DNA of 35,527 nt from Jimgerdemannia flammicorona (Eukaryota). Both the position numbers and the translations under genes were made by a program. Under the pieces are notes generated by a model. That model worked only from the letters and a program-made list of their open reading frames with translations. It did not search any database and was not told the DNA's origin. Shown piece by piece: positions 3,666 through 35,527 of the stretch (its first letter is position 1; every line of letters begins with the position of its first letter). Location of the stretch: positions 1-35,527 of the forward strand of contig RBNJ01000250.1 of NCBI GenBank assembly GCA_003990765.1, read 5' to 3'.

Positions 3666-3667
3666 CT

Positions 3668-8100: not shown

Positions 8101-8410
8101 AAGTATGCAGATAAGAAGTGGCAAGATGTCATATACAACATTGGTGATATAGTTCTACTCAAAGCTGACAACATCAAGGCTCAATCTCAAGTCAATTGCC
8201 AGTCAGCCAAATTTCAGCCCAAGTACCTTGGACCCTTCGAGATCACTGAGCAAGTCTCTACCTGGTCTTACCATCTCAACTTACCAATAACCATACATAT
8301 ACACCCAGTATTCCATGTATCATATGTAACTCAAGGCCTGGAATCAGTCACCCCCATACCCTGGCTGAATTCCAACACCATCAGCACCAGTCATAGTTAA
8401 AGACCATATC

Positions 8411-8560
8411 GAGTATGAAGTTGAGAAAATTTTAGACAAGTGAGTCCAATACTGTTACACAGAATATCTAGTCAAGTGGATGGATTACCCTGAATATAAT
8501 GCCACCTGAGAATCTGCTGCCAATCTCAAAAACTCCCAAGATCTCATCCAAGAGTTCGAG
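8411..8560 (+). pseudogene. Integrase C-terminal chromodomain, element 1
   Basis: EYEVEKILDK*V....EYLVKWMDYPEYNAT*ESAANLKNSQDLIQEFE. Confidence 0.93.
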
Positions 8561-8878
8561 TAAAAAGGAACTCATTGACTGTCCATGAGGTTCTCCTCTT
8601 AGATAGTAGATGACCTACTGTACTGATCAGGCACATTACACATTGGGGCTCTCTAAGGGATACAGTATCAGAAGCAAGAGATATAGGAGAACCCTATTAA
8701 TCCTACAACTAATGAGGTTTGAACCAGTTCTCATCTGATCAAGATAATACTTTGGCCCTCGCCTTATACAAGGATGGCCAATCCTTGGCAATGAGTCAGT
8801 ATATTTAATTTGAAGTTTCTTTTAGTCTTATTGTTTATTATATATAACTTTGAGAATTCAACAAGGACATTAATTCTT

Positions 8879-8891
8879 AAGGAGGGAGAGA
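8879..8891 (+). promoter_or_regulatory. Polypurine tract, element 1
   Basis: AAGGAGGGAGAGA directly before the 3' LTR TGTAAC. Confidence 0.9.
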
Positions 8892-9295
8892 TGTAACATT
8901 TTAGCATAGTTTATTTCTTTTCTTTGTCCTTCTTCAATATTCTACAATCTTCTGGTACTTTCTGAATACTTAGAAACTCTTTCTTAGTGCCAAGCATCCT
9001 CTAGTACTTATTTAGTTAGTCACTGATTGTCCTGGAAACTTGTAGAACTTTATTTGTTATCATTTGTCATCTTTGCTGAGAACTTTCCTCTTGACATTTT
9101 CCTTTGATTTCTCAGATCCTTCTGGATCCTTCTTTCAGATCTTGTATAAATATCCCCTTTGTTCTCATGAATAAAGTCTCAGAATATTTTCTCCCAGAAA
9201 TCTTTTGAAGAACACTTGAATTCTTAGTATCTCTTCAAGCTACTTAGGACCACCAGAATTAGTTACTTCCTCATTTAGAAACTAGAACTGTTACA
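8892..9295 (+). repeat. 3' LTR of element 1
   Basis: TGTAAC...GTTACA terminal inverted repeat, 404 bp. Confidence 0.97.
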
Positions 9296-9926: not shown

Positions 9927-10352
9927 TATAATAATTTCACAGTCATATTTAGTCTTAGTATATTTTCACATCTTTTAGTTAGTCTTTTCTTGTCATTTCT
10001 TAAATATTCTACTATGTTCCACTACCTTCTACTTGCTTAAAAACCTTCTCTCAGCACTCAGATACTACTAGAATATTCTTGTCTTTCCTTAGCATCAAGT
10101 ATCTTATCTTAGCTAGTCATGGAACCTTTTGGAATATTGTAGAATAGTATTAGTCAGCTTTACTGAGAACCTATTTCTTGATATTTCTCTTTCTTTCTAA
10201 GATCCTTCCAGATCTTTCTTTCAGATCATATATAAATATCCTTATTATTTATCTAAATAAAGCTTAGAATATTTTCTCTCAGAAATTCTTTAAAAATACT
10301 TGAACCTTTAAGTATTTCTCTAAGCTACTTTAGGCTAACTAGAACTGTTACA
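9927..10352 (+). repeat. 5' LTR of element 2 (426 bp)
   Basis: TATAATAATTTCACAGTC...GAACTGTTACA. Matches 15474-15938 except for a 39-bp deletion near the end. Confidence 0.95.
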
Positions 10353-10400
10353 CTTGGTAGCAGCAGTGTCATTATATCTTGTCTTATTAAAAAACCTTAT

Positions 10401-13400: not shown

Positions 13401-15145
13401 TTTTGCCATTAGAGCAGTCCTGTCATAAGATAATAGCAAAGGACATCATCTTATTACTTTTGAGTCCTATAAGTTGACCTCAGCTAAATAAAAACTAGCC
13501 ACTTATAAGAAGGAACTACTGGTAATAATATATGCACTAAACCACTGGTGATATTATCTAGAAGATATTGAGTTTGATATTATTACTGATCATCAATCTC
13601 TCAAGTACATCAACACTGTCATATCTATAAGTCAAGTAGAGTCTCAAGCTTCAAACCTTCAACCCAACAATCATCTACAAGCTTAGCAAGACACTTATAG
13701 TACCAGATGTCTTATCAAGATGCCCAGACCTCACCACAATCATACAAATTACCTTGGCATTAGAATTCCTAGACCAAATCAGATAAACTTATAAAGAAGA
13801 CACAGTTGCCACTAGAGTTTTCTCAAATAAGCTCAAGGATATATATACTGTTGAGAACAATCTGATCTATCATCAAGATCAAGTCTATCTATCTGAAAAC
13901 ATAAACCTATACTATAAGGTTTTGCAAGAACACTATGACTCTCCAACACCACTACTATTGGCCAAGCATGGTCAAGGAAATCAAGAACTATGTTGCCAGC
14001 TATGATCTATATTAGTATGATAAGTCTATCAACCAAGTGTTAGTCAGTTTGCTATAACTACTGCCAATTCTTATCAAGAAATTCAAGCAAGTTACCATGG
14101 ACTTTGTAACTTAACTACCATAAACTCAATCTGGTGTTGATGCTATTTTCATATTCATTGACCCCTGACCAAGGCTATGGTTACTGAACCAACTACTACT
14201 AATGCTACTGTACCTGAGATTGCAAGAATCTTCTTCAAGTCCATCTTCCATCACTATAGCCTACCATAAGTAATTGTCAGTGATCATGACCCCAAGTTCA
14301 CCAGTTACTTCTGGCAAACTCTCCTCAAGACCCTGGGAATTTAATTGGCTATGTCTACTATCTTTCACCTACAAACTGATAGACAAACCAAATATATAAA
14401 CAGAACTCTAGAACAAATACTTAGAAACTATGTTTCTTATAAGCAAGATGATTAGAACCACTATCTGACTTATGCAGAGTTTGCATACAACAACACTATC
14501 CAATCATCTACTGGTCTTTCTCCTTTCTGGTTACTCTATGGTTAAGATCCTGAGACCTCTGCAAATCTATTCTCTTTCAAGAAAAGTAGTCAAATATAAG
14601 TCCCAACTGCTAAGAACCTTACAGATAAAATGGATGAACTACTCAAGATTGCTACCATGAATCTTCAGAAAACTCAACAGTATCAAGCCAAGTATGCTGA
14701 TAAGAAATGCTGTAATATCACTTATACTGTTAGAGATTAAGTTCTACTGTCTACTGAGAATCTCAAGATACAATCTCAAGTCAATTGCTCTTTGAACAAG
14801 TTCCAACCTAAGTATATTAGACCTTTCAAGATCACTGAACAAGTCTCTGCATCCTCCTACCACCTCAAGCTATCTGAAATCATAAGAGTACACCCAGTCT
14901 TTCATATGTCATACCTCAAGACCTGGAACCAGTCACCACCCTACTCTGGTTGAATTCCTAAGCCTTCTGTCCCTATGATTATTGAAGACTATATTGAGTA
15001 CAAAGCTGAGAAAATTTTTGACAAATAAATCTGCTACTGCCATCCTGAATACCTAGTCAAGTAGATGGGTTATCCTAAATATGATGCTATCTGGGAACCA
15101 CTGATCAACCTCAAGAACTCTCATGATCTAGTTTAAGACTTTGAG
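10401..15145 (+). pseudogene. gag-dUTPase-pol-chromodomain polyprotein of element 2 (start approximate)
   Basis: LKPDTFN (Gag), decayed knuckle ACFFYCQTEYIATKY, VLIDSRA, YLDN (decayed YLDD), MDFV/SDHDPKF, and chromodomain EYKAEKIFDK..EYLVK*MGYP...WEP at 14996-15145. Small deletions, e.g. in the integrase HHCC region near 13945. Confidence 0.9.
11424..11835 (+). pseudogene. dut: Trimeric dUTPase domain inside element 2 polyprotein
   Basis: LKIKKLHLKAQTP..IGLNL, STGIAVQYSEEHYARIALQSRL, IIDPDF*GQVQVLLIN, KGDQVAQMILE, TQ*DQKGFDST. Confidence 0.93.
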
Positions 15146-15473
15146 GCAAAATACATTGCCCAATCTCTGTAGTGACTTTCTTGGATTGTTGATGACCTAT
15201 GGCAATAATTAGTGCCTTATGCATCAGAAGTTTACTTTGGGACCTAAGAATTAGTAAAACATTTAATAAATAAGAAGTCCATCGAAATGAAGCTACTAGC
15301 TAGATTTGAACTCCTCCCAGTTAGTTAGTCTGATAATAGACCCTCTGTCCTATACAAGGATGACCAATCTCCACCAATATACCAATAAAGATTTGAGAAA
15401 TTTTGGTTAAGTATATCTAGTCTTATGTTATCTAAGAACTTAATGAGGACATTGGTTTTTAAGGAGAGAGAGA

Positions 15474-15938
15474 TATAACAATTTTACAGTCATATTTAGT
15501 CTTAGTATATTTTCACATCTTTTAGTTAGTCTTTTCTTATTATTTCTTGAATATTCTATTATATTCCACCACCTTCTACTTGCTTAGAAATCTTCTCTCA
15601 GTACCCAGACATTACTAGAACATTCTTGTCTTTTCTTGGTACTAAGTATCTTGTCTTAGCTAGTCATGAAACCTTTCAGAACATTATAGAATAGTATTAG
15701 TCAGCTTTGCTGAGAACCTATTTCTTAGCATTTCTCTTTCTTTCCAAGATTCTTTTGGATCTTTCTTTTAGATTATATATAAATATCCTTATTCTCTGTT
15801 TGAATAAAGCTCAGAATATTTTCTTCCAGAAATCCTTCAAGAATACTTGAATCTTTAAGTATCTCTCTAAGCTACTTTAGATCAATTAAAACTTCCAGAT
15901 TTAGCTACTTCCTCTTTAAAGAAATTAGAACTGTTACA
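15474..15938 (+). repeat. 3' LTR of element 2 (465 bp)
   Basis: TATAACAATTTTACAGTC...GAACTGTTACA, following the PPT. Confidence 0.95.
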
Positions 15939-16340
15939 TTGGGAGTGGTAAAGATGTGATCTTGAAGAGCAGTGAAGATACAGTCTCAGAGGGTGGTAAA
16001 GATGTGATCTCATGGGACAGTAAAGATGTAGTCTTGGGGGACAGTAAAGATGTAGTCTTGGGAGATAACAAAGATGTGGTCTTGGGAGGAGTAAAGATGC
16101 AGTCTTAGAGGATAGCAAAGATATAGTCTCAGAGAGGAGCAAAGATGTAGTCTCAGAGGACAGCAAAGATGTGGTCTTGGGGAGCAGTAAAGATGTGGTC
16201 TTAGAGAGCAGTAAAGATATAGTCTTGGGGGGCAGTGAAGGAGAGAGAGTGAAGATGTGGTCTTAGAGGGCAGTAAAGATATTCTTAGAGAGTAATAAAG
16301 ATATAGTCTCAAAGATAGCAAAGATATAGTCTCAGGTGGT
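15939..16340. repeat. 24-bp minisatellite, roughly 16-17 units (right part)
   Basis: Unit e.g. AAAGATGTAGTCTTGGGGGACAGT. The minus strand gives an 8-aa repeat such as LPPETISL / LSSETTSL. Confidence 0.9.
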
Positions 16341-16407
16341 AGCAATAGAGATATTGTACAGTTTTAGTAGTGCTGAATAAAAAAAAATAATACCACCTAG
16401 TAGATAT

Positions 16408-16411
<4 letters not shown>

Positions 16412-16464
<53 letters not shown>
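16412..16464 (+). repeat. A53 homopolymer
   Basis: Direct reading of the sequence. Confidence 0.95.
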
Positions 16465-16466
<2 letters not shown>

Positions 16467-16544: not shown

Positions 16545-17165
16545 GTGAGATAGAGAGGAGGTGGGGGTAGAGAGAAGGTATAGATAGATAGAATAGAATA
16601 AAAAAAAAAAAAAAAAAGATAGATAGAATAGAGAGAAGAAAGAGAAGAAATAGAAGAAGATTTGGAGATTCAGAAGAGTGGAAAGAAGGAGAATAATACT
16701 CTGAATATTATTTTCCCTCTCATTCACAATTATATTTTCTACTATAAAAATTGCTAGCTAACCTATCTAGTATCTATTCTCTATAGTTAGAGACAATTTA
16801 CTAATATATAACAATTTACTACTGAGTGAGAATAGAAGTGTAGAGAAGACAGAATAGAGAGGAGGTGTGGGTGGTGGGGTAGAGAGGAGGTGTGAGTGAG
16901 TGGGATAGGGAGGAGGAGGAGAAGGAGGAGGAGAAATGAGAGAAGATTCAGATAAGTAGAGAGGAGGTTTAGATGAAGTGGGAAAAAGAACAATTCCTAT
17001 TCAAATATTATTTTTCCTCTCATTTATAATTACATTTTCTACTATAAATATAATCTATCTAGTATCTGTTCTCTGTAGTTGGGAGAACAATTTATTAGTG
17101 TGAGATAATTTACTATGGATAATAATTTACCACTGAGTAATCAGACAAGTATAGAGAAAGCAGAT
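16545..17165. repeat. Diverged tandem duplication of ~310 bp (about 16545-16860 and 16860-17165)
   Basis: Both copies show a GA-rich tract, then AATATTATTTTYCCTCTCATTYAYAATTAYATTTTCTACTATAAA, then CTATCTAGTATCTRTTCTCTRTAGTT. Boundaries approximate. Confidence 0.75.
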
Positions 17166-17236
17166 ATTAAAGTGCTTAAATCTTATATAAGGGAAGAATT
17201 CAAATGAAGGAGGTCATGTTGGAGATATATTACCAT

Positions 17237-20200
17237 ACACCTTTCTTTGATAATATTTGAGTTATATAATTTTCTAATAATACTCACAACTTCATTTTTG
17301 GAAAAAAGATACTAACAATATGGTAACTGAAGAGCATTCTGAGATATATACTGAGTAGGATAACCCTAGTATATTCAACTGACAGTATGTGGGAAGAAGT
17401 CATGACTTGGGGGGAAGTATGAGGGGCTTGCTGACTAGCAGATATAGAAGAGAAGAAAGTAGTACTAAGGAACAGGAGATAGGGAGAATAAGCTTTACAG
17501 ATAAGATGAAGGGAGATAGACTGATGATGACGATTGAACTGGAGGGCTGGCTGAGAAAGAGCAAGAAGATAGTAAGAGTTATCAGTTCTGGGAGTATAGC
17601 AAAGGCAGCAGAGCTGGGAGAGTAGTGGTTGGAAAGAGTGAGACTGCTGATGGTAAAGAGACTACTAATTTGGAAATAAATCCAGATGTGACAGTTGATG
17701 GAGAATCTGGACAGAAGAAGGGTATAAGGCCTGGAGATCTGGCAGACAGTATGATAGGACTAATGGCAGCACTATTACTCAAGAAATCAAGGTCAGAATT
17801 TGCTATCATATTGTGTTTCCAAGGCTTGGTAGTAATAATAAGAATGATTTTGAGGCTCCTGGTCCAGGAGGTAAAGGGGGCTACTTTAGTAAAGTTTTTG
17901 AAGAGACTGGAAGGGGTGGAGATCAGCTTCAAGAAGAAAGAGATACTACTAGAGGTAATAGAGAAGGGAGTAGTGGTGGTGGGGGGGGGGTGGTAATCTC
18001 TATGGCCTGGTACTTACACTGGGATCTCTGAGTAATATAGCTGATAGTACTGGATATTCCTATAGTATTGAAGGAAATAGCTAGAAGATTGATTGTAGAG
18101 ACCATCAAAAAATATAGGGAGATTGTGGATATTGGGTTTAGGGTCTGAGAAGATACCAAATTCCAGACAGAAGATGTGGACATCAGAGTGTAACTAGTAG
18201 ATAAAGAGAATATGGGGAAGGTGAGAGACTGGCTGATAGTTCTTAAGTAGGGACCTAGAGTGCAAGGTCTTATGAGTAAAAAGGATGATAGAGGAGGAAG
18301 AGAACTTGCTGGAAGCATTGAAAGATCTAGCTAGAGCTATGGAGAGAGGAAGATTAGTCTAGAAGGAGTACAAGGCCAAGACAGTGGTAGAGATTATTAA
18401 TGATAAGAAGGTATAATTGAATTGAATGACCTGGGAGAGGATACAGAGAAGGCATATCTAGAAGGAGCTACTAGCTAAGTTGAGAAGAGGGATAGCTGGG
18501 GGGACTACCACTAAAGAGATGGAGTTGAAGATAAGTGCTTGGACAGGAGAGAAGAGAGTGGTATAAGAGGAGGCTCTAGGAGGGAGAGAGGACACTGGGC
18601 AGAGTATCATTGTAGAGGATGCAGAGATGATAGAGGGGGAGCACATATAGTATGGGATATCAGATGGAGCTGGAAATGAGGACAAATTGCAGAATGTGCT
18701 GGAGGAGAATTGGGATAAGTCAGTGAGAAGGAATGCTGAGAGGGAATAGATAGAAGGGAGGTTGAGAGTGGCTCAGAGGGTGGCAGAGGCTGAGGCTAAG
18801 AAGAAATGGCTATAGAAAATGCTGGAGAATGTAGCAGCTGAGAAGCTAGGGGGAGAGGACTTCCAGGTACTGAGTGAGGTAAAATCTTGCATAGGGAGGA
18901 GATGTTTCAGAAACTCTGAGATGAGATAATAGTAGCACTGTTAGAGACCAAGAAGTATCAGATTGATGATGCCAGAGAGGCAGTACTTATGGCAGTTGTG
19001 AATGATAGAATAGAATACATATGAGGCCTAAGGAAAGAGCTGGCAAAGTAGCAGGTGGTATATAAGAAATACTATACAGAGATGAAGATAGTAGATGGAG
19101 CAGATTGTCAGGAGATCTTAGAGACATTGGAGGCTCAACAGAGAGAGACTGATGAACTGGAGGCAGAAAGAAATCTGGATATTACTGGAGATACAGTAAG
19201 TATGAAATTATAGAGTAAACTGTAGTACTTCAAATAACATTATTCAATATAAACAGTATAACTAAAATCTTATCTCTGAATTTCAATGGACTCTGAGAGA
19301 TAGTGAGGTAGCAAAATATCTTTGGATAGCTAAAAGAGACTGAAGCTAATTTGTTCTTACTGTAGGATATTGAGTGTAATAGAGATCTGAATAGTCAGAA
19401 CTGAACAAAATAATGGGGTAGAGTAGCTATTTGGTAAAGATATGGGCATTTTGATTAGAAAAGGCAAGGGAGACTTGAGAGATATTGAATATTGGGGGAG
19501 TAGGGTAATATGGGGAGTCTGAAAGAGGTCAGACTAGAGGCCTTTGATAGTTGGGTCTTGTTATTGCCTAGTAGATAGAGGGGAGAGGGTAGAATGGATA
19601 TAGAAGCTATAAGAGTCTAGAGCATTAGTGGAGACCAGAATTGATTATCTAGGGGAGACTTTAATATAATATATAATAGAAAGATAGACAGAACTAATAG
19701 AGATAGAGAGATAGTAGGCAGGAGTGGGGGTATAGAAGACTGAGAGAAAGTTGAATGTTTGAGCTCATTAGGAGATGTAGAGAGGCTTAGATGGGGGGAT
19801 TGAAGAGTCTTCATTCACTGGATAACAGGGCTAAGATTGACTGGATATTGACTATAGATTGCTGGGGAATTGATATCTAGAGGTCTTTGGAGACTGTTTG
19901 ATATCTATGTTCAGATCACTGGAGTCTTTTAGGAGAGAGGTGTTTGAGAGTAGTGGGGAGTAGCCTAGACATTGGTGACTAAATACTTCCTTACTAGAAG
20001 AGGCTACTCTATAGGAGACATGGGTAATAGACATTAGCTCTAGGATTCTTGACTGGAGGGTAGTAGGCCTGGGGATTGGGAAGTACTAGATATGATTGAA
20101 ATCTAAGGTACAAAGATACTGAGGGGAGGTAGGAAGGATATAGAGTGCTCAGAGGAGAAAGCAGATGAGGTGGGCCTTCCAGAGGTTGGAAGGATTGTTG

Positions 20201-21407
20201 GTATCCTGGGCAGATCTAGTAAATAGAGGAAAGAAAGGAGATTGGCATATACAGCAGACCAGACTAGAGGTGGAGGAGCTAAAGGACATTCTGTGGCAGA
20301 AGGAGGAGCTACAGATTAGAGGCATGGCAGCCAGACTGTAGTGACAGGAATTGAAAGAGAGAAAGCAACTTACTAAATTTTTGTCATAGATGCTACAGAT
20401 AAGAAGAGTTCAGCAGCAGTGGAAGGGAGTCTTGGATGAGGCTAGGGAGTTGGTAGTTGGGATGTTAGAGATACTGGACCAGTTGAGTAGGTGGTGGAGA
20501 TATCTATAGAGTGAGGAGGATGGAGGAGAGAAAGTATTGATAATTGACAAATACTTGGAAGAATGGTACTCTGACCCAGTGATAGGCTTAGGCAATCTTG
20601 GTACTGCTGTCCAAAGAGAGGAGATTCATAAGTTCTGTGGACAATGAGCTCTGAGACTGTGCCAGAGAAAGATGGACTACCATAGAATTTCTGGAAATAG
20701 ATAGCAGGAATTGAGTTGGCTCTGAAGGAATTGATAGAGATGTATGATGAAGTAATAGATTCTGGGACATGGATTGGAGGGCAGAGGCTGGGTCTTATGA
20801 CTCTACTGTTTAAGAATAAGGGGAGGAGAGAGGAGTGGAAGAACTGGAGACTGATTATACTTCTAGATATAGATCACAAGTTAGTCACAAAGATACTGGT
20901 GGCTAAGCTGTAGAGAGTGGTCCAGCAGGTCCTGGGGGCTGAGCAGAGAGGGTTTGTAGAAGAATGTCTTATTAGAGATGGAACAGTCTGAGCACATAGC
21001 ATTATTGAGGATACTTGCACTACTGGGGTAGATAGATAACTGGTTTTTCTGGACCAGGAGAAGGCCTATAACAAGGTCTAATAAGTGTGATTAGAGAGGA
21101 TGCTACAGTATATTGAGGTTCCCTATAGAGTCTAGAGGATCTTGATCAGTCTGCTAGAAGAGAGTTAGGTGGTTATCATAGTGAATAGATATAGAGGTGT
21201 TTCTTTCTCTCTAGGCAGAAGAGTGCCACAGGGGGATCCACTGTCTCTGATTTTATATATACTATCCCTGGAGCTGCTTTTGGATAGGATATGGCAAAAG
21301 GTGCCTTTGCTGATAATATAGTAGTTAAGCTGGAGTCAGTTGTAGACATTGAAGTATTAAAAGATACAGTAGAGTGATATGAGACATACTTAGATGCTAA
21401 GCTCAAT
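17237..21407 (+). mobile_element. LINE A (L1/Tx1 clade), 5'-complete, heavily decayed, interrupted in RT by LINE B; remainder expected beyond the window
   Basis: 5' end ACACCTTTC, ORF1 ATG at 17320, ORF2 from ~19249 with APE motifs (LNFNGL, GDFN, SDHW) and RT motifs (KNWRLIILLDIDHKL, FLDQEKAY, PQGDPLS, AFADN). Breaks off at ..DAKLN. Confidence 0.9.
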
Positions 21408-22149
21408 AACCTTTCACTGATAATATTCAAGTGATATAAGACTCAGACAACACTTTCTGCAACATTTTTGATAAAAGAAAACTAGCAATATGGATAGTAA
21501 TGAGTATACTGGTGAGTATATTAGCTAGGGGGGCAGTAGTACCTTCAACTAGCAGTATGTCAGGAGGAGGTAAGGAGATGGTTTGGGGATACTAGAGCCT
21601 CCTATGGTTGGTTGTAGTACTGATATTAGAGGGTGGGGCAGATTGAGGCAACAAGGAGAGGGAAGGATGACCTTTGCTAATAAGGTCAAGATGGGGAGAA
21701 TGGTATTGGGTCTGAATAGTTGGTTGAGACTGGGGAAGGCATTGACAGCTTCAGCTAGGGGACAGAGAGGGGCTCCCATGAGAGGGGCAGACAGTAGGAA
21801 GGAGAGAGAAGTAGGGGCTAGAGATGTAACTGCTGATAGCATGGTGACTGGAGATCTGAAAAAAAATCCAGATGTGACAACTATTGGTAGATCAGGACAG
21901 GAAGAGAGCACGAGACCTGGGGATCTGGCAGATGGTATGACTGATATAGTGTCAACACCATTACTCAAAAAGTTGAGGTCAGAATTTACTGTCACATTGT
22001 GCTTCTAAGGCTTGGCAGTAACTGTAAGGATAATTTTGGGACTGGTGATACAGGAGGTGAAGGGGGTAGCTTTAGTGAAGTTTTTGAAGGGGAAAGAAGG
22101 GGTCAAGGTTGGATTTGAGGAAGAGGCATTGTTGTTGGAGGCTGTGGAG

Positions 22150-22168
22150 AAAGGGGTAGTAGTGGGTA
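22150..22168 (+). repeat. Target-site duplication of LINE C (second copy 28056-28074)
   Basis: (AAA)GGGGTAGTAGTGGGTA occurs before the 5' end and directly after the poly(A) tail; 16-19 bp. Confidence 0.95.
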
Positions 22169-22259
22169 CAAGTCGGACATCTCTTTCCAGTATCATTCAG
22201 GTTACACAACCTTTGGAAGGCACTTTCAACATCATTTTTGGTGAAAAGAGACTAACAAC

Positions 22260-24283
22260 ATGGCAACTGACAGGCAACCTGAGGTGCATACTGGGCAGGG
22301 TGGCCCAAGTACTTTCGACTGGCAGCAGGTGGGGAGGGGTCCAGGCCTGGAGGGGGTATGAGGGGCCTGCTGGCAGGTGGATGTGGAAGGGGTGGAGGAG
22401 GTGATAGAGAATCAGGTTCTGGGAGGACAAGCTTCATAGAGATGGTGAAGGGGAGACAGCAGGTGTCAGGGCTAGAGGGCTGGCTGAGGAAGGGCAAGGA
22501 GACCAAGAAGGTGACAGTGCAGGGGGGAGCGGCCCTTGGAAGGGGGGGCAGTAGAGCTGGAGAAGTAGTGGCTGGGGGGGGTGTGACTGCTGATGGTGAT
22601 GGGACTGTCAATCTGGAAAAAAATCCAGATATGATGGCTGGTGGCGAGGCTGAGCAGCTGAGGCTTAGAAGACAAGGGGACTTAGCGGATAGTGTAATGG
22701 GTCTGGCGGTGGCCCCATTACTCAAAAAATCGATCTCAGTATTTGCAGTCACACTGTGCTTCCGGGGCCTGGCAGTGATGGTGAAAATAGTACTGGGGCT
22801 CATCGCTAAGCAGGTGGCAGGAGCTACGTCAGTGAAGTTTTTGAAGGGACTGGAAGGAGTGGAGGTGGGTTTTGAGGAGGCAGTACCACTGGAGGAGGCA
22901 CTGAAGGTTGGATTGGTGGTTAGAGAGGTGTGTATTCTAATAGTGCAGTGCTTGAAGTGGGACCCCAGGGTGGTCCAACTGCTGGTGAAAGGAGTGCCAA
23001 TAGTGATAGCGATGGAGACAAGAAAGAGAGTTGAGGATTTCATAGCAGAATATGGAGAGGTGGTGGATATTGGGTTCAGGGTCTGGGAAGGGACCTCACT
23101 CAGGACTGGTGATGTGGATGTAAGAATTCAGCTGGCTGGGAAAGAAGCCACTGGGAAGGCAAGGGACTGGTCTTTGGCGATGGTCTGGAGAGCGATCCTG
23201 TGTAAGGTGACAAGGGTGAAGGGAAGTGAGGAGGAGGAGAAGGATTTATTGGAAGCACTAGAAGAGCTGGGTGGTGCTGTAGAGAGGCAAGCAAAGGCTT
23301 GGGAGGCTTTTGTAGAGTCGACACACTTGGAGGTGGTGGATGGAAAGTGGATTTGAGTGACCAAGGAGCAGTGGGAAAGGGCTCAGGGGCATAAGAGACA
23401 GAAAGAACTACTGGCCAAGCTGGATAGCAGACCACTGGGAGAGGCGAGTAAGGTGAAGGGCACAGGGGGAGCCAAAGTGAGTGTCTGGGCTAGCGAGGGG
23501 GAGGGGAAGGACAAGAAGGAGGCGGGAGAGAACAAGGAGAAGGCTAGGAAGGACCCATATGCTGATGGTACACTGGAGGTTTGGGAGGAGGACTGAGAGG
23601 GTTCTCCTACCCCTACCCCTCTCATCAGGCATGGCCTGGCTTCCCAGAACAGGGTGGTAGAAGATGTGCCAATGCAAGGGGCCCAGAGGGTGCAATTCGG
23701 AGTTCCGGAGGTAGTATATGGGGGACAGGTGGTGGCGGCTGGTGAGGAGGAACTGGTAGATGTCCTGGAGGTATGAGATGAGTCTGCAAGTGCTGGAGCT
23801 AACACCACAATGTTGGATGGAGGGAGGCCAGTGACTCTGGGGGAGAAAGAGGTGGGGAACTTGCTTTGGATATACCAGATGATGAATAACCTGATGGCAG
23901 AAGAGTTGGGAGAGGTGGACTTGCAAGTGATGAGTGATGAACATTGGGCAGGGATACTGCAGGGGGATGGCATAATGAAGGCATTGAAGGTGGAAATTCT
24001 TGTGGTGTACCTGGAGGAGGAAGGGTATGAGGTGGATAAGGAGAGGGAGATAGAGATAGTGGTTGTTGCTAGAGAGAGGGCTGAATACTGCTGGAACAAG
24101 CATCATGGACTACAGCTCTGACAGGAGGCGTACATCGAATACTGAGAGGAGTTCGAGGAGAAGGCAGATGGAGAGATGAATGAACTGCTGGCTGGATTGG
24201 AGGCTCAGAGGGCAGAAGAGGAGGAGGTGGCTGCGGAACATAATCTGGACATGGCACAGGAGGAGATGAGCATAGAGCAGTAG
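22260..24283 (+). pseudogene. LINE C ORF1 (~675 aa; Gly/Arg-rich N-terminus, RRM-like core, acidic helical C-terminus)
   Basis: MATDRQPEV...RGLLAGGCGRGGGG; VQLLVKGVP...IAEYGEVVDIGFRVWEGTSLRTGDVDVRIQL. One frameshift near 22350 and a few TGA stops. Homologous in all four LINEs. Confidence 0.85.
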
Positions 24284-24316
24284 AGACTGATTGATGACAT
24301 AACATATTTCATCATT

Positions 24317-27300
24317 ATGAACAGTACAACCAACATTTTCTCTTTAAATGTGAATGGGTTACAGGGTGCTTCTTGACATAGGAACATTTTTACTTAGATG
24401 AAGGAATTGGAGGCCAATCTCTTCCTCTTGCAGGATGTCCGGTGCGAAGATGACTCTGATAGGATAGAATAGACAAAGGAATGGGGAGGTGTGGCAATTT
24501 GGAAGGGCAAGGTTGGGATTTTGATTAGGAAAGGCAGAGGGGAGATACAGAATGTGAGGAGCTGGGGGGAGAGACTGGTCTGGGGAGAGTGAATTTGGGC
24601 AGGCTGGGAGCCAGTTATGGTTGGCTCCTGCTACTGCTCTGCAGTACAGGGTGAGAGAGTAGATTGGATGAAAGGCTTACAGGAGAGTGGATTACTTGCA
24701 GAGGCTGGGGTGGATATGCTTGGGGGAGATTTCAATATGGTTCGGAATATACTGTTGGATAGAACAGATAGAGGATGAGGTGCTGAGAGCAGGAGTGGAG
24801 AACTGGTGGCATAGGAGGAAGTAGAAAGACTAAGTGCACTAGTAGATGCTGGAAGGGAGTGCTGGGGGAATAGGAGGGTTTATACATATTGGGCAGGGGG
24901 TCTGGGGGCTAGAATCAACTGGATTTTGAAAGCCAGCTGCTGGGGTCTAGATGTTTGGAAGTCACTGGAGGTGGAATGGTGTCTATGGTCAGATCACTGG
25001 GGGCTTTTGGGACAGGGGTGCTTTGGGGGAAGTGGGGATGGGCCTGGACATTGGTACCTCAATTTCTCTTTGTTAGATGACAAGACTCAGTGGGATGAGT
25101 GGGCAAAAGACATTCAGCTGAGGGTGGAGAACTGGAGGCAGGAAGGGGCCTCAGTTGGGACTCAGTGGATGAGGATGAAGGAAATGGCCAGGATTTACTG
25201 GAAGGAGGCTGGCAAGGAGGCAGGGAAGCAGTGAAAGCAAAGAGTATGTTGGGCCTCCACTAGATTGATGAGGCTCCTGGAGGAGTGGGTGAGGCTGATG
25301 ATATTGGAGGGAGAAGAAGATTGGAGATTAATGAGGGCGAAAATGGAGGTTGGGGAACTTCAACAGGTGCTGCAGGAGGAGGAAGAGGCAAGGGTACAGA
25401 GGTCTTCACTGGCAGGATCTGGAGGAAGGAGAGAGGCCTTCCAAGCTTCTTACAAGGGCCCTTAGGGTGAGGCAGGTACAGCAATGGTGGGAAGGGGTAT
25501 TGGACTCCAATGGTGTACTGGTGCATGGTATACAGGACATTCTTAGATCACTGAAGGAGAGATGGAGTAGATTGTAGAGTGAGGAGGAGGGTGGGGCAGA
25601 TGCCGCTACAATTGAATGAACATTGGAGGATTGGCACCCACCACAAGTCGAAGGGCTAGGGGACCTGGTGATATCTGTACAGGAGGATGAGATCCACCAG
25701 GTTCTTGCCATGACAATGCCAGATACGGCACCTGGGGAGGATGGTCTGCCCTGGGACTTTTGGAAGCAATGGTTGGAGTCCCAGGGGTAATGGGAGAGAT
25801 GACAGCATTGTGTGACCTTATTCTACAGACAGGGAGATGGGTGGGAGAGCAGGACCTTGGGCTGGTGACACTGCTTTACAAAAACAAAGGAAGGCGGGAA
25901 GATTGGAAGAACTGGCGGCCAATAATGTTGCTAGATATGGACAGAAAGTTGGTAACTAAGGTGGTGGTGACAAGACTACAGAAGGTGGCCCAGTAAGTCA
26001 TGGGTGTTGAGCAGAGGGGATTTGTGGGTAGTTGGCTCATCAGAGATGGCACTACCTAGGTATATGGCATTATCAAAGGGGTGAGGGCCTGTAGACTAGA
26101 TGGGCATCTAGTCTTCTTGGACCAGGAGAAGGTATATGACTGGGTGTGAAGAGTCTGACTGGCGAAAGTTTTGGATAGAATAGGAGTTCCGCATCAATTC
26201 CAGTCAGCAATGGTCAGCCTACTGGAAGGGAGTAGGGCTGCACTCATGCGTAATGGACATAGAGGGGTAGCATTCCCCTTGGGTAGAGGGGTGCCCCAGG
26301 GGGACCCATTGTCCCCCATTTTGTATGCTCTTTCTCTGGAACCCCTTATGGATAGAATTAGGCAGAGGATAGCAGGGCTCTCTGTCTTTGGCATAGAATG
26401 GAAAGTTGGGGCCTTTGCTGATAACATAGTGGTGGGTTTGGGTTCGATTGCTGATGTTGAGGAGCTCAAGAAGACTGTGGAGTGGTATGAGGAGTACTCT
26501 GGAGCTAAGCTGAATTGGCATAAGTATGAAATGATGGTGCTAGGCAATAGCCTGGTGGGAGGGGAAGTTATAGGAATAATCATCCCCACTGGTGAAGCAG
26601 TGCAATACTTAGGTATCTACTTGTCAGTCTATGGGTCAGTTCTGCCTAGGCTTTGGTGAGAGCAGAGGATTGGAATCTGGGAGGAGGCCCTGTAGAGTTG
26701 GGGGGGAAGACATTTTTCTCTGGCAGAGCAGATCTTGATTTTGAATGTCTACTGGCTGCCAAAGTTGTAGTACCTGGCATATAATCTAGACTTCCCGGCC
26801 TGGGTGGTGAAGAGATTGATGAAGTCAGTGAAGGGATGAATTTGGGCTGACAGGCAGAGTCAGATTAGTTGGGAGACCTTGTCCCTACCAGTGGCAAGAG
26901 GCGGTCTTGGGCTGGTTGACTTTCCAAAACAGTTACACTGCTTGAGAGCATGGTGGCTGAAGAGGGCAGTGGAGTTGAGAGGAGGTGGATGGGTTCCTCT
27001 GCTACAGAAGATCTGGGAGAGGCAGGCATCGCCAAGGGGCTCAACTGGCGATCTCCTCTCCTTGGTTGGACTTCAGAACACTGGACAACTATGATATAAA
27101 GGATTTTGGTGGGGGATTGCAGATGGGGTGCACCACATTAGTATTTGTTGGCAGGGAAATGAAGGAGAGGAGGATTGGGACTCAGCAATATGGAGATAGG
27201 ATTGTATACTGCTGGGTGGCACTCCTTTAATTGAGTTTGACATTAGTGATGGAATAGAATACCAAAGGGGACCAGGCCAGGATCTGTGGCCTAGCAGTTG

Positions 27301-27961
27301 GCAAGGAGTTGGAATTGGCAAAGAGTGGAACTGGCATGGTGTTTGGACCTGGAGTGCTGCAGTGAGAACATGGCTGCTACCAAAGTACTGGGTGGTCTGG
27401 TGGCACATGCTGCAGAGGAATGTTATGCTCAACTTTTGCTCGGGGCACCTTATCATAGGGGATTGCTTCAACTGTGAGGAGTGTCATAATATAGAACAGG
27501 AGGGGGGTTATGTACAGACACCAGAACATTGGCTAGAAGAGTGTGAGGCGTTGGGGGATTTTTGGTGGACAATTGGAGATCACTTGGGGGTATAGGGTAG
27601 GGGTGATGAAGTATGGGGGAGGTGGGAGGACTTGAGGGATAGATTGGTAGGGGGGATAGGGAAGGAGTGGCTTACTTTGGGTTGGACTTTGGCTATTTGG
27701 GTGGGGCTGGCCAGTCATTGGCTATTTGTTTTTGAGGATGGGAGAAGACAGAGCTTGGGAGACCAGTTGCTGTAGTGGCATAGGCTTATGGAAGACACCT
27801 TAACAGGCTGGTAGCTGGGTTGGGGGATGTGGGGTGGTCGGAGGCACCACTTAGTGGAGAAAATCTGTGGGCAAAGTGGGGGGAGAGTTGGGGTAGTTGG
27901 TGAAAGGGTGATTTTTATTCATAAGGAGGTAGGGAGGGGCCCCCCTGTGGGGATTGGGTAG
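24317..27961 (+). pseudogene. LINE C ORF2: APE endonuclease + reverse transcriptase + C-terminal Cys/His motif
   Basis: FSLNVNGL, FLLQD, LGGDFN, RINWI, SDHW, GPGHWYLN.SLL, KNWRPIMLLDMDRKL, QRGFV, LDQEK, RGVPQGDPLSP, AFADN (AFADD in copy D), QYLGI, LPVARGGLGL, CEEC...EHWLEEC. Confidence 0.95.
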
Positions 27962-28028
27962 TGGGTAGGAATGATGTATATTTATTCATAGACTGGTAAT
28001 AAAGGTGGAGTCCAAGTGACTATAAAAG

Positions 28029-28061
<33 letters not shown>

Positions 28062-29749
28062 GTAGTAGTGGGTAGAGTAGTGGTTCCTATAGCAAGATAT
28101 ATGTACTGAGACCCCCAAGTGGTACAGTTGATGGTGTTGGATTTTTCTATGGTATCAAGGGCAAGGACCAGGGAGCTAATTGTGGAGGTGGTCAAGAAGT
28201 ATGGGGAGATCATAGATATTGAGTTCTGAGTCTGAGAGGATACTGATCTCCAGATGGAAGATGTTGACATCAGGGTGAGGCTGGCTGAAAAGGAGAATAT
28301 GGGAAAGATGAGGGACTGACTGGTGACTCTTAACTGGGGACTAGTTGAATGTAAGATTTCACAGGTAAAAGGGATACCAGAGGAAGAGGAGGACTTGCTG
28401 GAGGCTCTTGAGGATCTGGCAGGAGCAGTAGAGAGGAGAAGACTAGCTTGGAAGAAGTATGAAGCCAAGACAGTGGTGGAGATTGTGGATAGAAAGAGGA
28501 TCAGGATGGACAAGAGGGCCTGGGAGAAGGTGCAGGGGAGGTAAATCCAGAAAGAGCTGTTGGAGAAGCTGGGAGAGGGTGGAGCAGGCAGTAGTACAGG
28601 AGAGAGTAGTGCTGGACTAATGGGCTAGAGAGTACAGGATAGCTCAGGATGAGGCCCAGGGTAGATCAAGTGAGGAGGGACTGGGTGGCATAGTGGAGAA
28701 TACAGAAATGGATGAGAAAGTATACCCTCAGTATGGTGTTTCAGGCAGAGCAGGGGGTGAGGAAGAACTACTGAATGTACTGAAGGAGGAGTGGGATGAG
28801 TTAGGGAGGAGGGGTGTATTGGTGGACCCTGTGGTGGGGGTTGATGGGGTCACTTGGGGTGTTGCTGAGGTGGTAGATAAAGAGAGAAAGTGGCAGCTAA
28901 GGAGCTGGGGGGTAAGGACTTTCAGATACTAAGTGATAGACATTGGGAGGAAATTCTCCATGATAAAGAGGTGCTGAGGAAGATTAGGAATGAGATCTTG
29001 GCAGTGCTCTTAGAGTCAGTGGAATATCAAGTTGATGATCAGAGAGAGGGGGCTCTCTGAGAGATTGCAAATAACTGAGCAGAGTACTTGTAGGGTTCAA
29101 GAAAGGTGTTGAGAAGTAGAGAGTAGTATGTACAGATTATTGGGCAGAAATGAAAGTTGTGGATGGGGTAGAGTATCAGGAAATCTTAGAAGCACTGAAT
29201 GCTCAGACTGTAGTAAAGGATGAGTTGGAGGTGGAATGGCACTTGAAACTAGCTGGTGATGAGATAAGTATGGAATATTAGACTGGACTCTCAATATCAA
29301 ACATTATTCAATATGAACAGTACAACTAAAATATTTTCTTTAAATATGAATGGGTTGTGGGTATAGTATGGTGAAGGAATATCTTTAGCTAGCTGAAAAG
29401 GCTGGATGCAGATCTTTTCTTACTGCAGAATATACTATATGAGATAGATATGGATTTACAGGACTGGACTAGAGAATGGAGTGAAGCAGCTGTGTGGACT
29501 GGGTGGGTGGGTATTCTGGTTAGAAAGGAGATGGGGGACATTGGGAATATTGAATATTGGGGGAGTAGGTTGGTGTAGAGAGTATGAAAGAGGCCTGAGT
29601 GGAACCCTTTGACTGTTGGGTCATGTTATTGCTTAGCTGAGAGGGGGGAATATATAGATTAGATTACATTCTTTCTCCAGTAACATTCAGGTTACACAAC
29701 CTTTTGGCAACACTTTTGATATAGTTTCTGGAGATAAGCTACTAGTATA

Positions 29750-31782
29750 ATGGTAACCAATGAGCATCCTGAGGTGTGTTCTGGGCAGGGTGGCCCTGGA
29801 GCATTTGAATGGCAGCAAGTGAGGAGAGGCCCAGGCTTGGGGGGAAGTATAAGGGGCCTGCTGGCAGGAGGACATGGTGGAGGAGGGGGCAGAGTTGGAG
29901 GTCAAGGGTCTGGTAGAGTGAACTTTGCAGAGAAGGTGAAGGGGGGGCAGCAGGGAGCTGGACTGGAGAGCTGACTGAGGGGGGGGAAGATACCAGTGAG
30001 GGCTGCAAGGCAGCAGCCTCATGGGGGTGCCTCTCTGGAGGGCCATAGGGGTGGAGCTGGGGGAGTAGCAGCTGAGGCGGGGACTGCTGATGGGGGTGTA
30101 ACAGGTGATCTGAAAAAAAATCTAGATGGGACTGCTGATGGTGGGCCGAGTGGTAGGAAGGGCACAAGGCCCAGGGACCTAGCAGATGGTGTAATGGGAC
30201 TGGCAGTGGCCCCATTACTCAAGAAGTCGATCTTGGAATTTACTATCACAATATGCTTCTGAGGCTTAGTAGTGATGGCAAAAATGGTTCTGGGGCTGAT
30301 TGCAAAGCAGATGAGTAGTGCAGTATCTGTTAAGTTCCTGAAAGGCCTAGAAGGGATGGAGGTGGGATTTGAGGAGACTGGACTACTGGAGGAGGCTTTG
30401 AAGGCTGAGATGAGAGTGGGTGAGGTGTGCATCCCAATGGTGAGATGCCTGAGGTGGGACCTGAGAGTGGTGCAACTTCTGGTAAAAGAAGTTCCCACTG
30501 TTACTGCTGTAGAGATAAGGAAGAGAGTCGAGGAGATCATAGCAGAGTATAGAGAGGTGGTCAATATTGGGTTCAGAGTATGGGAAGGAACCTCCCTCCA
30601 GACTGGAGATGTTGACGTCAGAATTTGGTTGGCAGGGAGGGAGGCTACTGGAAAGGCTCGGAACTGGCCCTCAGTGATGATATGGGGGGCTTTCTTATGC
30701 AAGGTGATTAGAGTAAAGGGGAGTGAGGAGGAGGAGGAGGAGGATTTGTTGAAAGCACTGGAGGAGTTGAGTAGGGCAGTGGAGAGGAGGGCAAAGGCAT
30801 GGAAGGCATTCAAGGAGTCAATGCATCTTGAGGTGGTTGGAGGGAAGTGAGTCTGCATCAATAAGGAGGTATGGGAGAGGTCCCAAGGGTGCAGAAGACA
30901 GAGGGAGTTGTTGGAGAAAATGGGGGCAGAGGTGAAGAGGAAGGTGGAAGGTAGTGCAACCACTGGAGGTGCTGAGATAAGTGTCTGGGCTGCTGGTAGT
31001 AGAGGAAATGAGGAGGGGGGTCTGGAGGAGGCCAAGAAGGCACTGAGCAAGAGCCTATATGAGGATGGCACATTTGAGGTTTGGGAGGAAACCTGGGAGG
31101 ATTCATCTTCACCCTTCCCCCTTATCAGAAGGGGACCAGCAGTGAGAGGTAGAGTAGTGGAAGATATACTGATGTGTGGTGCTCAGCGGTGTACTTTGGA
31201 GTCCCTAATGTGGAGAAGGGGGAATTGGTAGAGGCAACTGGAGAAGAGGAATTGGTGGATGTCTCAGAGGAGGGATGAAATGAGTCAGCAAGTGTTGGGG
31301 CTGATACTACAATATTGGATGGAGGGAGACCAGCGATCCCTGGAGGGAAGGAGATGGGGAATTTGCTCTGGATGTGCCAGATGATGAACTTGGCAGTAGA
31401 AGAGCTGGGGGAAGTTAATCTCTGAGTGATGAGTGATGAGCATTGGACGAGGATCCTGTGGGGAGAGAGAGTGGTAGCAGCATTGAAGGCAGAAATTCTG
31501 GCAGTATACTTGGAGGAGGAGGGGTATGAGGTGGATCTGGAGAGAGAGGCTACTCTGACAGTTGTAGCAGATGAGCGGACTGCTCACTGTTAGACTAAGC
31601 AGCATAGACTGCAGCTCTGGCAAGAGGCTTGCTTGGAGTACTGTGAGGATTTTGAGGAAAAGGAGGATAGAGAGATAGCTAAGATCCTAGCTGAATTGGA
31701 GGCTAAGAGGGCTGAGGAGGCAGAAGCTGTTACAGAGCACAACCTAGATAGGGCACAGGAGGAAGTGAACATGGAGCAGTAG
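29750..31782 (+). pseudogene. LINE D ORF1
   Basis: MVTNEHPEV...; colinear with LINE C ORF1, ending MEQ*. Confidence 0.85.
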
Positions 31783-31813
31783 TGGACTCATTTGAAACTA
31801 TATAATCTTTCCT

Positions 31814-34800
31814 ATGAATAGTATAATCAATATTTTTTCTTTGAACATAAATGGGCTATGTGGGTCTTTTCGATACTGGAACATTTTTACTTAGCTAAAG
31901 GGATTGGAGGCTGATCTCTTTCTTTTATAGGATGTCAGATGTGAGAATGACTTAGAAGGGCTAGAATGGATGAAGGAATGGGGTGGTGAGGCAGTTTGGA
32001 TGGGAAAGGTTGGGATTCTGATTCAGAGAGACAGAGGGAAGATCCAGGATGTGAGGAACTGGGGTGACAGGCTGGTTTGAGGAGAATGAATATGAGCAGG
32101 CTGGGAGCCAATCATGGTGGATTCTTGCTACTGCCCTGCTGTAAGGATTGAGCATATAGATTGGGTAAAAGGCCTCCGAGAGAGTGGGGTCCTAGCAGAG
32201 GTGGGCATAGACTTGCTTGGTGGAGACTTTAATATGGTCAGAGATGCATTAGTAGATAGGACTGATAGAGGGTGAGGGGCTGAGGGTAGGAGTGGAGGGT
32301 TGGAGGCATAAGAGGAGGTGGAAAGGTTGAGTGCTCTGATGGATGCTGGTAGGGGGATTTGGGGAGACAGGAGGGTATATACACATTGAAAGGGAGGCCT
32401 GGGGACAAGAATTGATTGGATTTTGATGGCAAGTAGCTGGGGCCTCAATGTGTGGAAGTCACTGGAGGTTGAGTGGTATCCATGGTCAGATCATTGGAGT
32501 GTATCAGGGCAGGGATATTTTGGGGGGAGTGGGGATAGGCCTGGACATTGGCACCTCAATTCCTCTTTGCTAGCTGATAAGATACTGTGGGATAAGTGGG
32601 CAGTAGACATTAGACAGAAGTTAGAAGGCTGGATACAAGAGGGTACCCCAGTCAGTACCAGGTGGTTGAGGTTGAAAGATACTGCCAGGGTCTACTGGAG
32701 CAAGACTGGCAAAGTGGCTAGAAGACAGAGGAGAAGAAAGGGGAGATGGGCTTCTGCTAGACTGGCTAGGCTTTTGGAGGATTGGGCTGATCTGGTGGTA
32801 TGAGAGGGGGGGGAGGACTGGAGAGTTAGACAGATGAAAATGAAAATTAGGGAGCTACAACAGGTATTGTGGGATGAGGAGGAGGCACAAGTGCAGGGCC
32901 TGATGGCAAGGCTATGATGGCAGGGGCAGGAGGAAGGAGAAAGGCCTTCGAAGTATCTCACGAGAGCCCTTCAGGCAAGAAGGGTGAAGCAGAGATGAGA
33001 GGGAGTAGAGGCATCTGATGGTTTGCTAGTACATGGTATACAGGACATTCTTGGAGTATTGAAGGAGTGCTGGAGTGGACTTTGGAGTGAGGAGGAGGAT
33101 GGGGCAGATGATGCCACCATTAATCGTGCTCTGAAGGACTGGCACCCACTACAGGTAGAAGGACTGAGTATCTTGGTGTTGCCAGTTCAGGAGGAGGAGG
33201 TCCACCAGGTACTGGCCATGACCACTTTGGGCATAGTACCAGGGGAGGATAGTCTGCCCTGGGACTTCTGGAAGAAGATGGTGGGAGTTCCTGGAATACT
33301 GGGAGAGTTGATGGTATTGTGTGATCTGATACTATAGTCTGAGAAATGGGTGGGGGAACAGGACCTTGGACTGGTGACATTGATTTTTAAGAACAAAGGG
33401 AGGAGTGAGGACTGGAAGAACTAGAGGCTGATTATGCTGCTGGATATGGACAGAAAGCTGGTCACTAAGGTGGTGGTTGCTAGATTGCAGAGCATGGCTC
33501 AGCAGGTCCTGGGTGAGGAGCAGCATGGCTTTGTAGGAGGTCAGCTTATTAGGGATAGCATAGCTTGGGTGCATAGAGTTATTGAGGGGGCACAGGCATG
33601 TGGACTGGATGGTTGACTGGTCTTCCTGGATCAGAAAAAGACATATGACCATATTCAATGAGCCTGGTTAGTGAAGGTACTGGACAGAATCAGTGTATAT
33701 CCTCAGTTCAGGAAAGTGATGATCAGTCTACTGGAAAGGAGTAGGGCTGCCCTTATTTGCAATGGACACAGAGGGGTGGCTTTTCCCCTGGGCAGGGGAG
33801 TACCTCAAGGTGACCCTCTATCCCCCATTTTGTATGCTCTATCCTTGGAGCCATTGATGGATAGAATTCGAAGGAAAATAGTTGGACTTTCCATCTATAG
33901 TATTGGGTGGAAAGTTGGTACCTTTGCAGATGATATGGTGGTTTGGGATTGATTGCAGATGTTGTGGAGCTTAAGAAGACAGTAGAATGGTATAAGGTCC
34001 ACTCTGGGGCTCAGCTCAATTGGCACAAGTGTGAGACAATGATATTAGGTAATAGACTAGTGGGAGGAGATGTCATTGGAACAATTGTCCCAGTGGGGGA
34101 GGCAGTATGGTACCTGGGTATATATTTGTCAGTCTATGGGTCAGTCCTTCTGAGAACCTGGTGGGAGCAGCAAATCGCAATCTGGGGGGAAGCTCTGTGG
34201 AGTTGGAGTGGCTATCACCTATCATTGATGGGGTGAGTCTCAATTCTGAACACTTACTGGCTTCTGAAGTTGTGGTATTTGGTATATCACCTGGACTTTC
34301 CAGCCTGGGTGGTGAAGAGGTTGACGAAACTGGCCAAGAGGTGGATCTGGGCTGGGAAATGAAGTCAGATCAGTTGGGAAGTTCTGTCTTTACCAGTGGT
34401 CAGAGGGGGCCTGGGGCTGGTTGACTTCCCAAAGTGGCTATTCTGCTTACATGCATGGTGGCTGAAGAGAGTGGTGGAATTGCATAGGGGTAGCTGGGTT
34501 CCCCTGATGCAGAAGGTCTAGGAGATAAAGTCATCACCAAGAGGCTCTACAGGAGATCTACTGTCCTTGGTCGGACTTCGAGACATTGGAAGAATATGAT
34601 TCAAAGACTTCTGGTGAGGGGTGGTAGATGGTGCTCACTATATTGGAGTTTGTTGGTGAGAGAATGAGGGTGAGGAGCCATGAGACCTGGCCATATGGAG
34701 ATGGGATCGAGTACTGCTGGGGGGTGTCCCCCTTATAGACTTTGATATCAGCGATGGAGTGGAGTGCCAGAGGGGACCAGGCCAGGATCTTTGGCCCAGC

Positions 34801-35465
34801 AGCTAGCAACTAGTAGGTATTGGTGAGGAGTGGGACTGGAGTAGCATTTGGACATAGAGTGATAGTGTGCGATGTTAGATACTACCAAAGTATTGGGTGG
34901 TATGGTGGCAAATACTAAGAAGAAATGTTATACTCAACTTCCAATCAGAGCACCTTGTCAAAGGAGGGAACTTTGACTGTGAGGAGTGCCACAATGTAGG
35001 GCAGAAGGGGAGATATGTACAGATGCCTAAACATTGGCTGGGGAATGTGAGGTGCTGGGTGACTTTTAGTTAGCAGTTGGTAAGTGACTTGGTATAGCAC
35101 ATAGGGGAGATGGTGAGTGGGGTTGGTGGGAGGATTTGAGGGATAGATTGGTAGGGGGGGTGGGTAATGAGTGGCTTACCCTGGGGTGGGTTTTGGCAGT
35201 TTAAGTGGGGTTGGCCAGTCACTGGCTATTTGTTTTCAAATATGGGAGGAGTTTGGGTTTGGGGACATGGGTCTTGCAGTGGCAGGGGTTGATAGAGAAT
35301 ATTATAACAGGCTGGTGACATAGCTGGAGTCCACAGAGTGGTCGGAGGTGTCAATTGGTGGAGAAAATTTGCCAGAGGAGCAGGAGGAGAATGAGAGTAG
35401 TGGATGGGAGAGTAGTACTTATACAAGAGGGTGTAGGGGGGAACCCCCCAGTGGGAATTGAGTAG
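31814..35465 (+). pseudogene. LINE D ORF2 (APE-RT)
   Basis: Same motif series as LINE C, including GTFADD; many stops and frameshifts. Confidence 0.92.
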
Positions 35466-35527
35466 TGTGAGGAGGTGTTTGTAATTATCAATAGACTAGT
35501 AATAAATGGTGAAGTCCGCATGATTAT

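Follow-up and report, generated by a model that had tools for sequence, protein, structure and literature searches.

Nested, co-oriented LINE copies in a transposon island of Jimgerdemannia flammicorona

How do several copies of one retroelement come to lie inside one another, all reading in the same direction and all complete at the 5' end? This question is raised by a 35,527-nt stretch of the genome of the fungus Jimgerdemannia flammicorona (GenBank assembly GCA_003990765.1, contig RBNJ01000250.1, positions 1 to 35,527 of the forward strand; hereafter, the window), the right-hand part of which is occupied by four copies, A to D, of a long interspersed nuclear element (LINE). The original prediction, made from the sequence letters, had described these as four nested, co-oriented and 5'-complete L1/Tx1 LINEs of a highly processive family that prefers its own copies in sense orientation. 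The explanation we favour, at a probability of roughly 0.6, is a stack of separate insertions by target-primed reverse transcription (TPRT) of a single L1-like LINE family into a transposon island poor in genes and devoid of CpG.

Anatomy of the nest

Self-BLAST of the window brought out one repeat family that occupies the + strand between 17.2 kb and the window end, with every match in plus/plus orientation. Copy C (22180-28013) matches D (29670-35517) at 71.5% identity over 5901 columns; A matches B at 65.5% (18018-19584 against 28105-29649) and at 74.2% (17643-17917 against 21829-22103), and A (17287-17921) matches C (22227-22864) at 68.2%. Boundaries were set by this self-BLAST, by mapping piece by piece onto C and by reading the junctions, and together these bear out the predicted arrangement of four nested, co-oriented copies with complete 5' ends, including open reading frame (ORF) 1, the endonuclease, the reverse transcriptase (RT) and the target-site duplications (TSDs) listed here:

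17237..21407, + strand: LINE copy A, the oldest tier; 5' end complete, ORF1 ATG at 17320, RT interrupted by the 5' end of B
21408..22168, + strand: LINE copy B, first part, from the 5' end into ORF1; ATG at 21490, final 16 nt (22153-22168) forming the left TSD of C
22169..28058, + strand: LINE copy C, complete; common 5' end at 22177, ORF1 ATG at 22260, ORF2 from about 24320, poly(A) at 28029-28058
28059..29665, + strand: LINE copy B, second part, from the remainder of ORF1 to the middle of the endonuclease; first 16 nt (28059-28074) forming the right TSD of C, interrupted by the 5' end of D
29666..35527, + strand: LINE copy D; 5' end complete, ORF1 ATG at 29750, colinear with C to the window end

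The complete insertion is that of C, which had been placed in ORF1 of B with a TSD. This copy entered B at about position 750 of the element, within ORF1, carries a 30-nt poly(A) tail and is flanked on both sides by an exact 16-nt TSD, GGGGTAGTAGTGGGTA; it is, in other words, a complete, textbook TPRT product. Eight additional nucleotides (22169-22176) separate the TSD from the start that C has in common with the other copies. The two remaining breaks were located where they had been predicted, i.e., at 21407/21408 for B in the RT of A and at 29665/29666 for D in the endonuclease of B. On the C coordinate, A breaks off at about position 4307, right behind the FADN motif of the RT, and D entered B at about position 2500, some 116 codons into the endonuclease. 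For both of these insertions the 5' junction is the visible one, and the 3' ends of A, B and D lie beyond the window—D leaving it about 6 nt short of its expected poly(A). A poly(A) tail with TSD is accordingly seen for one of the four copies, and the family has no long terminal repeats (LTRs). Since the copies differ from each other by 25-35%, it is unlikely that confused repeats produced a chimeric assembly.

The LINE family and its common 5' end

All four copies are dead. Read as one frame, C comprises 1952 codons with 37 stops, a number that includes the natural ORF1 stop and three stops ahead of the point where the frame joins ORF1, and RVT_1 alone is still recognisable in it by Pfam (5.7e-25). 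A protein search with C scored 8000 candidates, 23 of which reached an E of 0.001 or better; intact fragments from environmental assemblies in the protein collection are 65-83% identical to C. Scanning of metagenome contigs yielded one confirmed locus, L001 (4546 nt), out of 111 pattern matches, with no confirmed locus in viral contigs and none among the 239 pattern matches in genome contigs. L001 is near-intact: 119 nt of unrelated flank are followed by an ACACC start at position 120, with the ATG 83 nt further on; an ORF1 of 671 codons ends at an in-frame TAG, and after 11 codons the ATG of ORF2 follows in the same frame and opens a reading frame of at least 765 codons that runs to the contig end. 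The ORF2 product contains Exo_endo_phos (1.3e-14, residues 7-210) and RVT_1 (9.1e-27, residues 535-745), and its best relative of solved structure is human L1 ORF2p (1.5e-34), colinear over residues 329-749 against 322-745.

By its ORF2 domains and by the poly(A) tail and 16-nt TSD of C, the element belongs to the L1 group of LINEs with an apurinic/apyrimidinic (AP) endonuclease (APE-type), in which an AP endonuclease precedes an RT. Within the "L1/Tx1" label of the original prediction, it may fall in either the L1 or the Tx1 clade. Insertion into one specific repeated target, as in target-specific members of Tx1, was not observed: the 5' flanks of A, B, C, D and L001, together with two full TSDs, display neither a common motif nor a common position. 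Outside the family, the best homology matches are 25-29% identical and unnamed or generic, and ORF2 falls into generic endonuclease-RT clusters of the ESM Atlas. The 671-aa ORF1 product of L001 matched no Pfam family at E 0.1, and ORF1 found no ESM Atlas match of 0.9 or more. From the locus emerges a LINE family not described before, whose 5' end is fixed, whose 671-aa ORF1 contains no recognised domain and whose sense strand is unusually G-rich.

The composition of that strand is a feature in its own right. The sense strand of L001 contains 39% G and 15% C, with a GC skew of +0.55 to +0.62 at third codon positions, and runs of GGGG and CCCC occur at 43:0 in A and 107:13 in C. In the Gypsy ORFs of the same window (5992-8397), the skew at third positions is reversed, at about -0.36 to -0.39. 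Strand-specific C-to-T damage after insertion was rejected as a source of the G excess, the C>T and G>A rates being similar on the C and D branches; because the intact L001 carries the same skew even at third positions, the skew is a property of the lineage rather than of post-insertion damage.

The second shared feature of the family is its start. Aligned with each other, all four 5' ends begin at a single nucleotide (17237 in A, 21408 in B, 22177 in C and 29666 in D), with the start sequences ACACC, AACC, ACATC and ACATT, respectively, while the sequences 5' of these starts are mutually unrelated. The distance to the ORF1 ATG is 83 nt in A, 82 in B, 83 in C and 84 in D—matching the predicted start 82-84 nt before ORF1 in every copy on the + strand—and with L001 the same start is found in 5/5 copies. 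This argues for a fixed transcription start together with good processivity. The family would be transcribed from a site 82-84 nt ahead of ORF1, probably under an internal promoter, and its RNA would usually be copied to the end, which could explain why the copies have one 5' nucleotide in common. In a search for an R2-style self-cleaving ribozyme at the 5' end, Rfam returned no match at gathering score in the window; in positions 1-700 of L001 it gave three chance-level matches (E 3.5-3.7), none of them a ribozyme and none resembling that of hepatitis delta virus.

Age order and decay of the copies

The nesting demands that the hosts A and B be older than the guests C and D, and two aspects of the sequences agree with this order, namely the loss of CpG dinucleotides and the clustering of the copies. 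The observed and expected CpG counts, with their ratio (o/e), are as follows:

Copy A: 1 observed, 139 expected, o/e 0.007
Copy B: 1 observed, 88.5 expected, o/e 0.011
Copy C: 43 observed, 311 expected, o/e 0.138
Copy D: 25 observed, 293 expected, o/e 0.085
L001: 128 observed, 256 expected, o/e 0.50

At the CpG level of D, copy B would hold 7.5 CpGs, and the chance of finding one or fewer is 0.0045. GC content is 54% in L001, 50-51% in C and D, 45% in B and 41% in A. Over the 2.4 kb shared by all copies, the distance p is 0.365 between A and B and 0.299 between C and D, against 0.43-0.46 between the pairs, so A/B and C/D form two subfamilies, with C/D the younger.

Along the branches leading to C and D, C>T changes (0.17-0.21) and G>A changes (0.14-0.15) both exceed the reverse changes. 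The CpG loss and this excess fit decay driven by 5-methylcytosine or a process resembling repeat-induced point mutation. Copies C (22177-26600) and D (29666-34110) also have premature stops at identical codons: among the 57 TGG codons of L001, nine are stops in C, nine in D and four in both (hypergeometric P 0.027), and three of these four carry the identical stop codon. Such common stops could reflect descent from an already defective source, mobilised in trans, or mutation hot spots. Separately, the two TSD copies of C (22153-22168 and 28059-28074) and its A30 tail are unaltered. Under the measured spectrum of changes, 37 stops in the body of C would require a substitution level of about 13%; when this level was simulated (with A29), TSD and tail both escaped change with a chance of about 1e-4. 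This leaves two readings, namely damage after insertion that was almost exclusively C>T and G>A, or the arrival of C in an already damaged state.

Island context, orientation and rival explanations

To the left, the nest adjoins further retroelements, and the array is the right-hand portion of a larger retroelement nest. CpG o/e ranges from 0 to 0.18 from about 2 kb to the window end, compared with 0.77-1.14 in the first 2 kb. The following elements were delimited in this island:

3260..9295, + strand: Ty3/Gypsy element 1; LTR pair 92% identical, RT and integrase ORFs on the + strand
9927..15938, + strand: Ty3/Gypsy element 2; LTR pair 87% identical, inserted within the 24-bp repeat array of element E, TSD TTGGG at 9922-9926 and 15939-15943
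15944..16464, + strand: 3' part of the older element E; 24-bp tandem repeats, AATAAA and A53 (16412-16464)
16583..16632, + strand: putative poly(A)-only retroposition; AT + A18 between exact copies of GATAGATAGAATAGA (16583-16597 and 16618-16632)

Gag, RT and integrase of both Gypsy elements read on the + strand. The upstream part of E lies at about 9855-9921, separated from the rest by Gypsy element 2; between the two Gypsy elements (9297-9921), a repeat unit of about 120 bp is present three to four times and gives way to the first part of the 24-bp array, which resumes at 15944. This stretch probably represents the body of E, the old element with the poly(A) tail. With its 15-nt TSD, 16583-16632 is probably a poly(A)-only retroposition and gives an example of extreme 5' truncation in the region. 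The host DNA of A (16466-17236) consists of two copies of a unit of about 300 bp, each with one half rich in purines and another that contains pyrimidines (16664-16821 and 16963-17115 being 75% identical), and the DNA before 17237 ends in ...GATATATTACCATA. No remnants of the A-D LINE family were detected by tblastn in 1-17236. The CpG-normal part carries, on the - strand at 1386-2006, an open frame of 207 codons without a Pfam family, a motif of which we take to resemble the SWIM zinc finger of transposases of the Mutator-like element (MULE) type.

Under the favoured explanation of separate TPRT insertions, A would have inserted first and B would then have entered the RT of A (or arrived together with it); much later, two copies of the younger subfamily, C and D, would have entered ORF1 and the endonuclease of B. 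Self-nesting and shared orientation would need no homing device. Accumulation in a transposable-element island is the most likely route, as insertions would survive where no gene is struck, and we count the nesting of Gypsy element 2 in E, with its TSD TTGGG, and the low CpG o/e as the island context for this explanation. A direction bias would act on all retroelements of the region, by loss of inverted repeats or by a strand preference of the endonuclease on the purine-rich strand. The missing 3' halves should then lie beyond the window: past the poly(A) of D, a TSD ending in ...TATATAGATTAGATT would be followed by the remaining ORF2 of B and its poly(A), and past the latter a TSD ending in ...GCTAAGCTCAAT would lead into the remainder of A.

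Several points weigh against this explanation. Three successive hits in one nest of 6-12 kb are very unlikely under random insertion, an objection that lapses if the family or the island occupies much of the genome; the orientation agreements, 7/7 when all are counted (P 0.008, post hoc), require a cause that the data do not let us name; and nesting at two of the three junctions is deduced from the 5' side only. Nor does a simple oligo(A) rule explain the direction, as AAAA and TTTT runs are about equally frequent on the sense strand (17:14 in A and 17:20 in D); in this form, an oligo(A) target rule was rejected as the cause of orientation. A purine/pyrimidine strand preference of the endonuclease is a possible cause, with two nick sites defined.

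The first alternative is homing of the kind attributed to Zepp, in which the integration machinery favours the family's own copies in sense orientation and the resulting arrays could mark heterochromatin or pericentromeres. All three later LINE insertions in the window did fall in family DNA and in sense orientation, every copy is full length, and precedents are described: Zepp/ZeppL of the green algae Chlorella, Coccomyxa and Chlamydomonas form nested clusters, about one per chromosome, that target existing copies (PMC8226300, PMC3446292), and the pericentric Grem-LINE1 copies of Mucor are all directed away from the centromere core (bioRxiv 10.1101/706580). Yet the three events were selected for their striking look, and their common sense orientation has a P of 0.125—weak statistics, just as the original prediction had conceded. 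Two of the five readable 5' flanks (A and L001) are non-family DNA, low-complexity matches aside, and of these five flanks three come from a window picked for this very feature. The three targets lie at different positions and have no motif in common, which agrees with the earlier remark that strict site specificity does not apply, and the unrelated Gypsy and poly(A) elements have the same orientation. Gypsy integrates by a different mechanism and still reads in the same direction, so that simpler readings exist than a sense preference specific to the LINE family. The preference for its own family that had been proposed was not demonstrated, and we regard homing as an unlikely account of the nest. 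The proposal as a whole is partly supported: the nested, co-oriented array is real, and a family-level homing preference goes beyond a single window.

Orientation can also be attributed to the region, if the island takes up or keeps retroelements in one direction and the LINE nest inherits this bias, possibly as the flank of a centromere-like core, through a single replication direction or within one long transcription unit. Both such a bias, comparable to that of pericentric repeats in Mucor, and homing agree with the data, and neither is demonstrated. All eight retroelement insertions in the window, of four unrelated kinds (A-D, two Gypsy elements, E and the poly(A)-only insertion), lie on the + strand, and the four that stand outside the original finding agree with the array (4/4, P 0.0625), so that the bias may be regional, or a matter of survivorship, rather than family-specific. 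This count is post hoc and comes from a single window, the CpG-normal frame at 1386-2006 lies on the - strand, and Grem-LINE1 is reported absent from Endogonales genomes (bioRxiv 10.1101/706580); as an explanation on its own, regional bias seems rather improbable to us. A different kind of account dispenses with separate insertions: having copied one LINE RNA up to its 5' end, an RT would jump to an internal site of another within a single event, which makes the same orientation and the complete 5' ends automatic. End-to-end template jumping is a property of LINE reverse transcriptases, familiar from R2 and L1, and jumps to internal acceptor sites are not its usual form. The A|B and B|D junctions are seen on their 5' side only, with both donors ending exactly at the RNA 5' end, and A and B are equally decayed and of one subfamily, so that template switching could still account for A|B. 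B, in turn, is more CpG-decayed than D (P 0.0045) and belongs to the other subfamily, which makes a single event at B|D unlikely, and C is a classical insertion with TSD. Under template switching, the DNA directly after D (or B) should be a TSD that repeats the sequence in front of 17237 (...GATATATTACCATA); we hold this mechanism to be highly unlikely for the array.

The array can be compared with several known systems. As in Zepp/ZeppL clusters (PMC8226300, PMC3446292), L1-type LINEs that end in poly(A) lie one inside another; Zepp arrays, however, consist mostly of 3' ends owing to frequent 5' truncation (PMC8226300), whereas 4/4 copies of A-D are complete at the 5' end. Zepp-like clusters, one to a chromosome, are associated with the presumed centromere. 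Grem-LINE1 of Mucor circinelloides is likewise an element of a Mucoromycotina fungus with an L1-like AP endonuclease and RT, co-oriented in gene-free regions. In contrast to L001, where ORF1 is without a Pfam domain and a TAG and 11 codons separate ORF1 from ORF2, its ORF1 carries zinc fingers (CCHC) and its ORFs overlap by one codon; Grem copies are described there as interspersed, and not as nested like A-D (bioRxiv 10.1101/706580). A strong direction bias, with an inverted:direct ratio of 0.385, is also reported for human CLIQUEs, i.e., queues of Alu, L1 and SVA driven by the L1 endonuclease (PMC3215922). These grow mainly at poly(A) tails and TSDs that recreate a TTAAAA-type target, whereas the A-D insertions lie inside coding regions with no excess of A runs over T runs. 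Non-LTR tandems and nested forms are, moreover, reported as common in Drosophila (PMC5932611). Set beside TRAS/SART and HeT-A/TART, the A-D copies lie within one another's coding sequence, with poly(A) and a TSD, and carry no telomere repeat. Algae and moulds are already known to contain nested arrays of a similar kind, and what is new here is the family; the full-length nesting and the uniform direction are the unusual points, and they rest on one window.

Taken by itself, the locus offers a clean and well-dated case of LINE insertions nested in one another. A fungal L1-like lineage, not described before, that homes into its own copies, in sense and—unlike Zepp—at full length, and whose co-oriented nested arrays mark heterochromatic or centromere-flanking DNA in an order reported to be free of Grem-LINE1, is in our judgement a doubtful prospect; were it to exist, the stops common to C and D would imply continuing transcription and renewed mobilisation of dead copies in the array. 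If self-nesting and a single direction are properties of the family, it would be to fungi what Zepp is to algae and would provide a handle for finding centromere-flanking or heterochromatic DNA in Endogonales-like fungi.

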